Counted from the first letter of the stretch, positions 9,923 to 30,826 are shown. The stretch: 64,000 nt of DNA from Dictyostelium discoideum (GCA_000004695.1 CM000153.2:4992001-5056000); one strand, 5' to 3'. A program made the numbers and translations. Notes: a model not told the origin generated them from the sequence alone.

Positions 9923-12900
9923 TAATTTAAAACTTTTAATTTATTTTTTATATTATTTAAAAGTTTTTTATTATTATTCTTTTTAACAAAATGGTAGGCC
10001 AAAGATATTGAAATCACAGCTACAAATGCTACAGAACCAATAATGATACCAGCTAACTGGCCAGAAGAAAGACCAGATTTTGAATAAGTACAAATATTAT
10101 TTGAATTTGAGTTTTTACTATGATCAATAAGTAGAGAAAAATCTTTTTTTTTTTTTTTTTTTTAAAAATATATAAATAAAAAATAAATTAGTTATTATTT
10201 AGAATAATTAAAAATAATTTTAAAATTTTTAATTATTATTTACCCGGATCAATAATAACATATTCTTTATATTGAGGTATTGAAATTGCTATAAATAATT
10301 GATCTGAATGTGGTGTTGTGTCTATTGTTTTTAATGAATTAAATTCTGATTTTTCTAATATTGTATTTGAAATTGATTTTGGTAAACCATCAATTAATGC
10401 TCTTTTTATGAATCTACCATATAATGAATGATCACCTACTTTAATTTTTAAGTAATTTGAATTATCAATAGAATTTGTTTCACCAAATTCATTTCCAGAA
10501 CAAATATCATTAGTTTTTGAAGATAAAAGAGATGCTGACATAATTAATTCAAGTTGATTTAATTGATTTTTAAAATTATAATTTGAAAATGAAATTGTAT
10601 ATTTTATAGTTGATGGATTCATAATGAGTGATTGATTTGCAAATGAAATATTTGTTTCTTTTGTAAACCATTGTAAAGTTGTATTTATATAGGTTGTTGT
10701 TGTTGAAATTCCATCAATAGTAGTTGGTGGAACAATGATTGATGTTTGGTATAGGTTAGTTTCATTATTAATTTTTGTAAGGTTCCACTTTTCAAAATAA
10801 TATTCATTTACAACCTTTGAATTAAAATCAATTTCTCTAATTCCAATCAATGAAACAATTGATTTAAATGAATAATCTTGAATATTTGATGTTGATGTTG
10901 AATTTGGTGTTATTATAATTTCAGTGGTTGGGTCATTTGGATTTGGTTTTGGTTGTGGAATTATGATTACTTGTGAACTACAATCATTACCAATCCAAGG
11001 TGAATAGCAAACACATCCAACATTTGTTAAACAATAACCTTGATTTTTACCACCACAAATTGGTTCACCAAAACATAATTGTGGTGGATTTGTTGGTAAT
11101 GGAGTTGTTGGTGTGGGTGTTGGAGGTAAATCATATGATATATTGAAAATTTTTGGTACAACTGTAAATTTGTTTGAAATGGAAATTAGATTTCCACTCA
11201 TATCAAATTCCATAATATAAATTATAAATGGTTTTGTAGTTGCATTTACCATTACCGAAAAAGCACTAGAGTATACAGTAATTGGGGGTTGTTCATATTT
11301 ATTTAATGTTTCAGTGTAATTGATATAAACAACAAATGAAGAATACATATTTCCATTAGGATCAATAAAATCTTTATAAAAATTACTACCCAATACCCAT
11401 AATAAACCACCTTTTTCATTAATTGTACTTGTATCTGTAATAGTCATAGTATCAGGCATAAAATCAATAATTAAACCATTATATCTATTTGTCCAACCAT
11501 TTGATCCCAGTGTGTGAGAAGAGTAACCACTATAGTATCCTAAATTATTTATAAATCCATAAACACTAAAAATAAATTCACTTCTAAAACCAAAACCATA
11601 TGGTACATTAATACTACATGTATATCTACAAGTATTTATAGAAGATTGAGAAAATAATTTTGAATAACATTTAATAGAATCAAAAAATAATGTAGATATG
11701 TAAATAATTGGAGTTTGATCAATTCTAATACCAGAATCCAAATCTGTTACAGTGAAATTAAAATTGAAAACACCATTTGGAAATTCATACATTTGGAAAT
11801 CTGTTAAAAATGGAACTGTATTACCACCGGTATTTGAACAAAAGTTTGGGACAATTCTATTATTGAAATCCATAAAATTAATGAACGGATTTTGAATTGG
11901 TTCTACAACATTACCATTTTCTGAAAATATAGCTCTATTCATTTGAGTATCATATAATTCAACATATGTGATTGAATAATTTTGTGGAACACATGATAAA
12001 GGGATTGGTATCCATAATTGATAAAAACCAGATTTATCATCACCACTTGATAATTTAACATTAATTTCATTTCGAAGTAACTGTCTCTTATAATTTTGTC
12101 CTGTTGGTTCTAAATAGAAAATATAAGTTGAACTATCTAATTCACCTGAAATTTTAATAGTACCATTTTTAAAACCATTGATTGGATCATAAATATTAAT
12201 TTTCAAACCAACTTCAAGACTAGTTGAAATTACACTTAAATTATTTATTACAGGACCATATCCATCATAATTTTTACTAATACAAGTTAATTGAACTGAT
12301 TTTGATAGGTATGAACTAAAAAGTGTTGCTAAATTTCCATCAACGATATCTTTTATATATGACCATCCACCAAATACTAATTTCCAAGGAATAACTCCAC
12401 TTTGAGTATTTGATGGTATTTCAAATTCAACTTGAAATAATTTAATTGTTGAATTCCATTTTGAATAATAAACTTTACCAATACCATCATTCTCTATTTG
12501 ATTTAATGAAACCCTATCTAATAATTGAAAACCAATAACTCTTTCCTTTTCAATTGGTTTTGTAAAATTAAAATAAATTATATTTGAAACTGTTTTATTA
12601 GTAATATCAACAACTTGATGTAAATAACTTAAATCACTTATTGAAAATATATCAACATCTAAAATTAATAAATAATAATTATAATTTGTTAATATAAATT
12701 TAAAATAAAATGTAAAAAATTCTTTTTTTTTTTTTTTTTTTTTTTTTTTCAAAAAAATTTACCTTGTAATTTTGGTGGGTATGGTATTCTTTTTAGTGAT
12801 TTTGGACTTGTAATTTCACCAATTTTAAAATCTTGAGTATATCCATAAATATCTTCATATGTTATTATCTCTGGATAATGTAAAAATGTATCAATTACTA

Positions 12901-14849
12901 TTTCATAGGTATAATAATCTGTTGAAATAAAGGTATCCATTGAAGTTGATTGTGCAACCAATCTTTCATGACCATATTCTTTATTATTAATAATAAAACA
13001 TTTTAGCATTAAAGTTTTGTCTATTTGGATTTGAAATAAATATTTAAATTCAAATAAATGAATAACATCTACTGAATATAATGTTGGTTGTTTTATAACA
13101 GCTATTGTTATGAAAATATAAAAATAATATTAATATTAATATTTTTCATTTAAATTTTAAAATAAGAATATAAAAATTAATAAATAACCTTACAAATTGG
13201 AGATGGAATGTTAAAAAAATAATTAAATGGTTGAATTGAAAAACGACGAGTCTTTGAAGTTTCATTTGGTAAAAGGAATGATATTGAAAGTGAAAATCCT
13301 TTTAAATTTGAACCATCTTCAAAACCAAATGGAAAAGTTTCTTTTAATAACCCCTTGTCATATATTTCATATGTATACACTGAAAGATCATACTTTGAAA
13401 CATTGATAAATTGTGTTAGAATTAAATTTCCTTTCGGAGTCAACAAAATATGAGACTCAACGAAAATATAGTTAAAAACCAAAAATTTTTCTTTTTTTTT
13501 TTTTTTAAAAAAAAATAATATGTTTGTTAAAAAAATAAATAAATAAATAAATAAATTAATAAATAAATTAATAAATAAATAAATAAATAAATAAATAAAT
13601 AAATAAATAAATAAAATTAATAATACCAATTATATATATATCGTTTGAACCAATAGAACTCCTCAAAGTTTCATTATAATAAACATAAACATTAGCATTC
13701 GAATTTTTTACAAATAAATATCCAACTGGATTTATATACGTTGTTGTACCATTAATTGAAAAGATTGGTTTTGGTTCATTAATTGAAAAATCATTGTTTA
13801 CAAAAATAATAATTGGATCAATATCTGTAGTTTGAGTTGAAACTGTTTGCAATGGTCCAAACCCATTACCCATTACTTGATATGAAGTAGTTCCAGGTGG
13901 ATATGTTTCTAATTGATATGAAAATTCGTCACTATTTCCTCTTGCTATAATTTTTTTTTTTTTTTTTTTTTTTTTTTTTTTTTTTTTTTTAGAAAATTAA
14001 TTAATATTGGAAAATTAAATTAGATATTTAAAAAAAAAAAAAAAAAAAAAAAATAAGAAATACATTACATTCATAAAGATATGGAATTATAATATTATAC
14101 CAAGATTCACCACCATCTGACACATTAAAAAAATTAAATTCCATATTACCACCAGTATAAAATGGTTCAATAATAATTTTAAATGAATTATATGAAATTG
14201 GGGAAAATGCCCTCTCTGCATGTGGGTCTTGTAATCCATTTAATGGTCCATTTAATCCATCAATTATTAATATTGCACAACCATCATCTGTAAATCTATT
14301 TGATCTTAAATTTGGATATACCCTAAATTTCATATTATTAAAATCAATAGCTACATAAATTTTTTTTTTTTTTTTTTTTTTTTTTTTTTTTTTTTTTAAA
14401 AAAAAATTAATATTTATTATTTTAAATAAAAAAAAAAAAAAGTATTAAAAAAAATAAAATAAAATAAAATAAAATAAAATAAAATAAAATAATTTACCTA
14501 AACAATTAAAATTAATAGTTAAAATGTCCTCACCATTATCGACCTCACCAGTGAAATTTCCAATTGGAAAATTCCAAAGTTTAACAGTGAAAATAATAAA
14601 AGAATCATTTCTAATATTTGGTTCTCCTGTGGTATTATAAAAACTTGTAAATTTTAAACCACTTGCAATTGGTGATAAAAATTCAAACTTAAAATCACAA
14701 ACGGGGTCATTAGATCCTAATTGATATTTATTATAAGTTGAAAACTTTTGATCAGATACATCTATTATTTTTGTTTTAACTGAAATTAAATTGTTTAAAA
14801 AAAAAAATAATAATAACAGTGTTTGAATGATTTTTATTTTGCGATCCAT
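9923..14849 (-). CDS. Large type-I membrane glycoprotein with one EGF-like domain (gene A); at least 8 exons. Modelled exons include 14849..14498, 14350..14069, 13944..13627, 13490..~13190 and a large block 12752..10236. One or two small exons near 13020–13120 are uncertain. A final TM/tail exon is at ~10142..9923.
   Basis: True ATG at 14849 followed by a signal peptide (MDRKIKIIQTLLLLFFFLNNLISV). Donors are GTAAAT or GTATT and the frame is kept across each modelled junction. The EGF-like motif reads CFGEPICGGKNQGYCLTNVGCVCYSPWIGNDCSS, followed by a PTPTPTTPLP linker. The last exon (donor CCGG|GTAAAT at 10236) codes a TM segment LAGIIIGSVAFVAVISISLAYHFVKK and a short tail, with the stop near 9923. 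It is a paralogue of the gene at 21005..25830. Confidence 0.6.
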
Positions 14850-30200: not shown

Positions 30201-30826
30201 CAGGGTGGGAAGGTGATGGTTGCAGTATTCGACCAAAATGTCAAAATGATTGTAGTGGTGGTGATGCAGGTAATTGTAATTATATAACTAAAACATGTAT
30301 TTGTAAACAAGGTAGAGCATTAGATGATTGTAGTGGATTTGCATGCAATATTGATTGTTTAAACGATTCAAAATGTAATTTTACTATTGGCAAATGTGAA
30401 TGTAAAGATGGATGGGAAGGTGATAATTGTAACACTAAGCAACCAAATTGTCCAAACAATTGTAGCGAATCAGGTATTTGTGACCGTTCAACTTTGAAAT
30501 GTTTATGTGACTCTGATAGATTATTTGAAGACTGTAGTGGATTGAAATGTATTATAAATTGTAATAACAATTCAATATGCAATAATAAAATTGGTAAATG
30601 CGAATGTCTATCAGGTTGGTTTGGTGATAGTTGTGAAAATTCAGAAAAATCTTCATCTGAATCCTCTGAATCTTCTGAATCTTTATCAAAATCAAACAAA
30701 ACCAAAGTTATATTACTATGCACTATATTGCCATCTATTGCATTGATAGGTATAATTTTGGTGGTCATTTCATTAAAAAAAAGAAAAAATGAAGATCAAT
30801 ATAAGTACCACATTAAATTAAAATAA
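27240..30826 (+). CDS. Type-I membrane protein with LRR-like ectodomain, five or more tenascin-type EGF repeats and a TM (gene C); 7 exons (27240..27315, 27480..27699, 27847..28245, 28337..28510, 28589..28684, 28792..28872, 28975..30826)
   Basis: Signal peptide MKILVLLLFFSICIVSYS. LRR-like segments include LRNNHLKGSIDESWC and IYGNSLSGEAPSCF. Repeated CPNDCSG…GNC…C.C..G…CS modules follow, with CNFTIGKCECI.GWEGD.C. Then come an SESSESSES stretch, the TM VILLCTILPSIALIGIILVVISL and a KKRKNEDQYK tail. Every modelled junction keeps the frame. Donors are GTATGT, GTAATT, GTAAGT, GTAATA, GTTTGT and GTAATT. Confidence 0.6.

Follow-up and report, generated by a model that had tools for sequence, protein, structure and literature searches.

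Do three genes for EGF-containing membrane proteins lying within 21 kb of chromosome 4 of Dictyostelium discoideum AX4 form a locally expanding recognition locus, or does their neighbourhood have another origin? Aggregative multicellularity is studied mainly in Dictyostelium, of whose surface proteins few have known roles (tgr, csA, cadA, sib, ComC). A local family expansion had been proposed by the first-pass annotation of the window, that is, the whole stretch of 64,000 nucleotides (nt) analysed here (GCA_000004695.1, CM000153.2:4992001-5056000), to which all positions refer unless another locus is named. The three genes, called A, B and C below, are annotated yet uncharacterised; they encode single-pass proteins of the cell surface that are made up of domains of the ComC type. 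We favour, with a probability of roughly 0.6, a reading in which A and B are old-diverged members of one family and C a member of a second, all three acting as surface adhesion or signalling receptors, with their neighbourhood an old relic.

The gene models were spliced by hand at GT..AG junctions with consistent phases, in a window of about 20% G+C with short, AT-rich introns, and are as follows.

9922..14849 (stop included), minus strand: gene A, 'EGF-like domain-containing protein', 7 exons, 1407 amino acids
14849-14498, 14350-14069, 13944-13627, 13490-13194, 13101-12763, 12658-10244, 10142-9922 (stop included), minus strand: exons of gene A
21005..25830 (stop included), minus strand: gene B, 2 exons (25830-25764 and 25662-21005), 1574 amino acids
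27240..30826, plus strand: gene C (DDB_G0286881 / Q54L60), 7 exons, 965 amino acids in this model
27240-27315, 27480-27699, 27847-28245, 28337-28510, 28589-28684, 28792-28872, 28975-30826, plus strand: exons of gene C

The coordinates previously given for the three genes were correct within 1 nt. The model of gene A, with GT..AG introns of 92-147 nt in consistent phases throughout, matches the AX4 protein XP_637496.2 (UniProt Q54L67) with 100% identity over its entire length, and that of gene C is 98% identical to the annotated 950-residue protein, the differences being 11 and 4 residues at two splice junctions. The exact model of gene B has no identical entry in the protein collection, and syntenic orthologues of 1531-1734 residues are called in three other genomes. 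Spliced models and Pfam matches bear out the description of all three as type-I membrane proteins with EGF modules. According to a hydropathy scan, the three proteins are alike in having an N-terminal hydrophobic leader, one C-terminal transmembrane (TM) helix and a short basic tail of 12-20 residues, as had been noticed for the C-termini of A and B. The ectodomains of A and B had also been called rich in N-glycosylation sites, and this had to be given up: compared with shuffles of the same Asn-rich composition, the counts of sequons were 24 versus 21.6±4.4 in A, 34 versus 38.0±5.2 in B and 24 versus 18.6±3.7 in C, which rules out an enrichment over composition.

The relationship between A and B is carried by two alignments obtained by blastp with SEG masking and composition-based statistics, one of A1063-1348 to B1214-1500 (29% identity, E=3e-22) and a second of A603-766 to B739-900 (E=9e-5). 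The paralogy claimed by the first-pass annotation thus survives masking and is not a matter of low-complexity sequence. Identity amounts to 29% over the last 290 residues and falls to 19% overall in a 30-sequence alignment. Both proteins have in common DUF7034, the EGF module DUF7949 (PF25820) and a C-terminal match to ComC_SSD, the supersandwich domain defined from ComC, and their domains are arranged as follows.

13194..14849, minus strand: gene A exons 1-4, residues 1-416, signal peptide and membrane-distal immunoglobulin (Ig)-like β-sandwich domains, the fastest-evolving part of the gene
Gene A residues 661-797, minus strand: DUF7035 (86.8 bits)
Gene A residues 823-920, minus strand: DUF7034 (89.3 bits)
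10965..11072, minus strand: gene A single EGF module, residues 1058-1093, CFGEPICGGKNQGYCLTNVGCVCYSPWIGNDC (Pfam DUF7949, 53.2 bits versus cutoff 27)
10126..10913, minus strand: gene A ComC supersandwich domain, residues 1111-1339, spanning the intron 10243-10143 (ComC_SSD, 65.1 bits, cutoff 24)
9985..10071, minus strand: gene A TM helix, residues 1359-1387, with the conserved AGIIIGSV (Kyte-Doolittle scan), followed by a 20-residue basic tail
Gene B residues 552-672, minus strand: DUF7743 (62.5 bits)
Gene B residues 953-1073, minus strand: DUF7034 (74 bits)
22010..22093, minus strand: gene B EGF module, residues 1213-1240 (DUF7949, at 25.4 bits marginally below cutoff 27, and EGF_Teneurin and EGF_2 matches), aligning with the EGF module of gene A
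21230..22009, minus strand: gene B supersandwich-domain region, residues 1241-1500 (blastp to A1096-1348, within the E=3e-22 alignment)
21044..21148, minus strand: gene B TM helix, residues 1528-1562 (hydropathy scan), followed by a 12-residue tail

When scanned alone, the C-terminal segment of gene B matches ComC_SSD, and 16 of 16 family members do likewise; the region of gene B equivalent to DUF7035 is visible only through blastp to gene A (E=9e-5).

The family to which A and B belong is very large. An exhaustive HMMER search with the C-terminal 807 residues of gene A recovered 770 representative clusters at E<=1e-3, 579 at E<=1e-10 and 352 at E<=1e-30. All ten members looked up came from Dictyostelium species, and a more distant one was found in Polysphondylium violaceum. 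Most members have 1350-1420 residues and are collinear; gene B is longer (1574 residues) because of poly-Asn insertions, such low complexity being abundant in its N-terminal half. Gene A is closer to paralogues at other genomic sites, namely AX4 Q54JJ9 and several D. discoideum strain proteins at 40-49% identity, and gene B is collinear over residues 570-1503 with many members at about 25% identity, the best of them (P0084) at E=4e-43 versus 3e-22 to A. From these identities and searches it follows that A and B are only remotely related within a single large family, neither being the other's closest relative, and the sequence relationships place them as anciently diverged members of that dictyostelid family.

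The 30-sequence alignment is collinear from end to end, and invariant Cys, Pro and Gly residues occur in it from C51 to L1359 (gene A numbering). Its invariant positions include the EGF cysteines C1064, C1072, C1078, C1080 and C1089, gene B included. The motifs that had been cited as shared by A and B are present in both but are near-invariant family-wide, so that they indicate no special tie between these two genes: SLYGRFIKRA.IDG and IDPDF hardly vary within the A/B family as a whole, and the family signatures SLYGRFIKRALIDG and IDPDF sit in the supersandwich domain of gene A. The TM helix is conserved as well (QLAGIIIGSV, with G1366, I1367 and G1370 nearly invariant), and in a search of PDB sequences with a profile of the supersandwich domain plus TM helix, the only matches, all weak, were to the GxxxG-rich TM segment of amyloid precursor protein (E 0.017). 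Taken together, this conservation and these matches suggest that the helix takes part in helix-helix packing and is not a passive anchor.

Structure models were built with AlphaFold2 from 55-sequence alignments, with gene A in two overlapping segments. Both were all-β (A24-684, predicted local distance difference test score (pLDDT) 79.5 and predicted template modelling score 0.81; A641-1360, pLDDT 83.2), and by fold comparison they match the Ig/FN3 arrays of receptors and adhesins, with the supersandwich domain most like GLMP. The repeated units of about 100 residues reported in the first-pass annotation correspond to structural β-sandwich domains but not to repeats of sequence, as none were found by BLAST self-comparison; DUF7035 and DUF7034 are the only β-sandwich domains detectably related to each other (hhalign probability 89%). 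The architecture of A and B is a signal peptide, about nine Ig-like β-sandwich domains as a stalk, one EGF module, the supersandwich domain, a GxxxG-type TM helix and a short basic tail. Both genes present the features of the family: the supersandwich domain beside the TM helix, the single EGF, central β-sandwich domains from the DUF7035/DUF7034/DUF7743 set, collinearity, and a signal peptide with one C-terminal TM helix. No solved structure was found for any homologue of this family.

Gene C is of a different kind. Its resemblance to A and B by BLAST is limited to generic EGF cysteines, and its own domains, which uphold its earlier description as leucine-rich repeats (LRRs) followed by tenascin-like EGF repeats and a TM helix, are these.

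27668..29200 (intron-interrupted), plus strand: LRR domain, residues 89-424 (Pfam LRR_ComC, 58.5 bits versus cutoff 27)
29843..30643, plus strand: eight alternating teneurin/tenascin-type EGF modules, residues 639-905 (EGF_TEN at 81 bits versus cutoff 65, EGF_2 and a cysteine pattern scan)
30698..30781, plus strand: TM helix, residues 924-951 (hydropathy scan), followed by a 14-residue tail

The domain Beta-sand_ComC_2nd scores 21.7 bits in gene C, under the cutoff of 27, and passes in the paralogue DDB_G0286963. Gene C belongs to a second ComC-related family, with an LRR_ComC solenoid, a β-sandwich, eight teneurin-type EGF modules and a TM helix. Its closest paralogues (DDB_G0286963-like) are 43-49% identical. 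The nearest of these was not found in the window by BLAST, and no DNA is common to the window and the locus of this paralogue in strain ACTFIR. In the D. discoideum strain GCA_054859385, elsewhere on the same chromosome, the nearest paralogues of gene C form a tandem pair of LRR_ComC genes:

L010 7193-9798 and 10001-12847: tandem pair of LRR_ComC genes

From this pair it follows that local duplication does occur in the family of gene C.

Whether the three genes stand together for a reason can be judged from what lies between them and from the order of the region in other genomes. The intervening genes are unrelated to A, B and C.

15468..20971, plus strand: four genes between A and B, encoding an FNIP-repeat protein, a GNAT acetyltransferase, a hypothetical protein and an amidase (GatA-like), recognised from open reading frames (ORFs) and from Pfam on window ORFs or orthologues
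26337..26897, minus strand: one gene between B and C, DUF4269

The lineages compared, all from the assemblies of PMC12745789, were one wild strain of D. discoideum, two that may be cryptic species, and D. citrinum, the last on the A side only. Gene order is conserved in these four lineages (in D. citrinum, on the A side). Within the discoideum clade the orthologues of A, B and C are one-to-one, single-copy, syntenic and 82-92% identical, those of gene B being found in three lineages. A recent local expansion was seen only in D. citrinum, not in the window, and concerns gene A:

L005 4688-9695 and 10001-15043: tandem copies of gene A in D. citrinum, 86.8% identical in DNA over 5.2 kb, introns included

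Since both copies are equidistant from AX4 gene A, this duplication is specific to the D. citrinum lineage.

With five unrelated genes interspersed, with gene C on the opposite strand and unrelated to A/B beyond generic EGF similarity, and with A and B each closer to members elsewhere in the genome, the locus could be taken as chance proximity, without any functional or evolutionary link, in a gene-dense genome rich in surface-protein genes. The same explanation would account for two other family members that we examined and found to be solitary within ±10 kb, and for the fact that a family pair within 11 kb is expected with p=0.11-0.25 if there are 20-30 members. It is harder to reconcile with the clustering of EGF-like genes in general, as D. 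discoideum has 33-38 of them (PMC4931340 Table 4) and three within 17-21 kb have p=0.004-0.008 under random placement, in a test that was post hoc, or with the tandem duplications that occur at this very locus in D. citrinum and, at L010, in the family of gene C. Overall we consider mere coincidence rather improbable. The expansion proposed by the first-pass annotation is thus retained in one respect, the clustering of EGF-like genes being unlikely by chance, and lost in another: a recent tandem expansion is not borne out, A and B being only 19-29% identical with closer relatives elsewhere, unrelated genes lying between them and C belonging to a different family. Most likely, the neighbourhood is what remains of an old local duplication (A/B), with a third surface-protein gene co-located, and is not an actively expanding recognition locus.

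Evolutionary rates were measured as pooled Nei-Gojobori ratios of non-synonymous to synonymous substitution rates (dN/dS) against four lineages (three for B, C and their neighbours), with segments checked for zero internal stops. The values for residues 1-416 of gene A were 1.02, 0.90, 0.82 and 0.48, those for its C-terminal part 0.32, 0.40, 0.37 and 0.31, and those for gene B 0.32, 0.30 and 0.35; gene C gave 0.40-0.54, its exon 2 alone 0.21-0.80. Pooled housekeeping neighbours gave 0.12, 0.15, 0.25 and 0.20, with 0.09-0.29 for the FNIP and amidase genes. Relative to the housekeeping neighbours, the non-synonymous excess was significant for A, B and C (odds ratio of non-synonymous to synonymous differences, Nd/Sd, 1.5-7.9; Fisher p 0.03 to 6e-15). 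Compared with D. citrinum, gene A is 56-68% identical in the N-terminal exons and 90% identical in the supersandwich domain. Evolution of A, B and C is thus moderately accelerated, with the acceleration concentrated in membrane-distal parts, and the supersandwich and TM module is very conserved.

Raised ratios were also observed for the GNAT gene (16976-17464; 0.35-0.65) and the hypothetical gene (17906-18688; 0.26-0.87), and therefore fast evolution is not exclusive to A, B and C. Two other interpretations of gene A were discarded, neutral evolution of the whole gene on account of the dN/dS of 0.31-0.41 in exon 6, and pseudogene status of its N-terminus on account of ORFs that are intact in all five lineages and of the ratio of 0.48 (confidence interval 0.34-0.61) versus D. 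citrinum.

Surface proteins with long Ig-like ectodomains, dN/dS above that of their neighbours (odds ratio 1.5-7.9), a distal part of gene A (N-terminal 410 residues) that evolves at 0.82-1.02 within the discoideum clade with its ORF intact, and a tandem duplicate in D. citrinum are together what might be expected of allorecognition genes. Under that explanation A, B and/or C would behave like tgrB1/tgrC1, that is, as polymorphic ligand-receptor pairs whose variable distal domains decide the co-aggregation of strains. The tgr subfamilies that are expanding in the clade, however, have 30-80% amino-acid identity, rampant duplication and turnover, and unalignable regions (PMC12745789), whereas the orthologues studied here are one-to-one, syntenic and 82-92% identical; such extreme divergence and turnover were not seen in A, B and C across the four lineages compared, which are not a population sample. 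Moreover, whole-gene dN/dS is well under 1, the ratio for the N-terminus of gene A drops to 0.48 at greater divergence, which fits weak constraint, and the arrangement of A, B and C is not that of two neighbouring genes transcribed divergently. Membership of the tgr family, with which the first-pass annotation had suggested a comparison, found no backing either: no match to the IPT/TIG domain (PF01833) was obtained in A or B at E<=0.1, and gene C had one below threshold (17.1 bits versus cutoff 20.9). Nor did A, B or C give any match to the VWA domain, and their tails are 12-20 residues long and basic, so that membership of the sib (similar to integrin beta) family, likewise suggested for comparison, was not sustained. 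Of the three rival explanations, allorecognition is the least compatible with one-to-one synteny and modest divergence; we regard it as very unlikely, and nothing found here marks A, B or C as self-recognition genes like tgrB1/tgrC1.

In the reading that we prefer, the domain content of A, B and C suggests that they act at the cell surface in adhesion or signal reception, as ComC does in developmental cell-cell communication. The variable membrane-distal domains (the N-terminus of gene A, the LRRs of gene C) would contact ligands or other cells. A partner protein in the same membrane would offer a docking site in cis to the supersandwich domain and TM helix, both highly conserved, in the way that MFSD1 does for GLMP. 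Docking of this kind is proposed because the tail is short and has no signalling domain. GLMP itself is a single-pass glycoprotein and an obligate accessory subunit of the transporter MFSD1 (PMC6819133, PMC11252000).

Several points weigh against this reading. Function is extrapolated here from what domains are present and by analogy with ComC, and the overlap with ComC is confined to the supersandwich domain in A and B and to the LRR and EGF part in gene C. The likeness to GLMP is one of fold without a sequence signal: no GLMP chain was matched at E<=10 when PDB sequences were searched with the profile of the supersandwich domain plus TM helix, and the NCU-G1 Pfam family matched 0 of 16 family members. 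The supersandwich fold is, in addition, also a carbohydrate-binding module in many glycosidases. Finally, the significance of the proximity of A and B is uncertain, as a family pair within 11 kb has p=0.03-0.25 over an assumed range of 10-30 AX4 members.

The carbohydrate-binding, galactose-mutarotase-like character of the A/B supersandwich fold, taken with the extracellular LRR solenoid of gene C, a typical pattern-recognition module, also lends itself to a different role, in which feeding amoebae would use these proteins as receptors of prey, of bacteria or of glycans in the environment, whether in phagocytosis or in sensing akin to innate immunity, and their fast evolution would stem from interactions with microbes rather than with other amoebae. 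Such a role would suit distal domains that evolve fastest, as well as the great size and lineage specificity of the family, which are common features of receptors in defence or sensing, but ComC, the only characterised relative, has a developmental and not a feeding phenotype, and the supersandwich domain is the most conserved and not the variable part. A role in microbe sensing seems to us unlikely, and adhesion or developmental signalling remains our preference. More speculative still, and a long shot, is the proposal that the A/B family are modular receptors in which the supersandwich domain and GxxxG TM helix dock in the manner of GLMP on a polytopic partner (a transporter or channel) and the fast Ig-like tip diversifies recognition of amoebae or microbes, which would make them a second, tgr-independent recognition system. 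In gene A this tip has a dN/dS of about 1, and the gene has its tandem duplicate in D. citrinum.

As it stands, the result is an accurate reading of annotated genes that are uncharacterised members of known families; both the genes and their domain families were already present in public databases, and they are not a new kind of system. A literature search returned DDB_G0286881 in no searchable paper and, likewise, none for comC together with lagC. What the analysis brings out is that the domains of ComC are spread over two large, uncharacterised, receptor-like families, with the GLMP-like membrane-proximal module, the strongly conserved TM helix, the fast-evolving distal tip of gene A and the D. 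citrinum duplication as leads. If A, B and C are indeed adhesion or recognition receptors, the known repertoire of cell-cell communication molecules would be wider.

Other features of the window lie outside the three genes. A segment of about 1.65 kb, 1-2.5 kb downstream of the stop of gene A, has no counterpart in the syntenic intergenic region of any of the four other lineages. It contains a reverse-transcriptase ORF fragment and appears to be an AX4-lineage-specific retroelement remnant. Further ORFs were found beyond gene C, one of them for a G8-domain protein (an extracellular-type domain). Two very long window ORFs, of 1042 and 1642 residues, have no Pfam match.

7320-8980: segment missing from the other lineages
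7293-8135: RVT_1 (reverse-transcriptase) ORF fragment
50991-52772, minus strand: ORF
55649-58777, plus strand: ORF
58966-63894, minus strand: ORF, the last long one, in a stretch unusually high in G+C (0.35) with a GC skew that is strong for this genome

Among known systems, the closest comparison is with ComC (DDB_G0271692), a protein of 1501 residues with a signal peptide, one TM helix and 14 EGF modules, the loss of which leads to aberrant aggregation and to a non-cell-autonomous sporulation defect, one that chimeras rescue (PMC4931340 supplement); dictyBase describes it as similar to MEGF11. The Pfam families LRR_ComC (PF24141), Beta-sand_ComC_2nd (PF24143) and ComC_SSD (PF22933) derive from it. 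With ComC, A, B and C have in common the type-I membrane topology, a signal peptide and a short tail; A and B carry its supersandwich domain beside a single TM helix, and gene C its type of LRR followed by teneurin-type EGF repeats. Unlike ComC, A and B have one EGF module, no LRR and a long Ig-like stalk instead, and gene C lacks the supersandwich domain. None of the three is an orthologue of ComC, from which its published description and domain content set them apart.

GLMP (NCU-G1) differs from A and B in being lysosomal, about 400 residues long, and devoid of an Ig stalk or EGF module. TgrB1 and TgrC1 (tiger/lag) resemble them as Dictyostelium single-pass surface proteins with tandem Ig-like (E-set) β-sandwich ectodomains, from large lineage-specific families in which some members are tandemly duplicated. 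They differ in that tgr proteins have no EGF and supersandwich modules like those of A, B and C, in which divergence and gene turnover are far lower. Animal proteins of the teneurin, tenascin and MEGF type, lastly, are comparable with gene C only in its eight EGF modules, which match the teneurin model above threshold, whereas its LRR_ComC domain and overall architecture are dictyostelid-specific.

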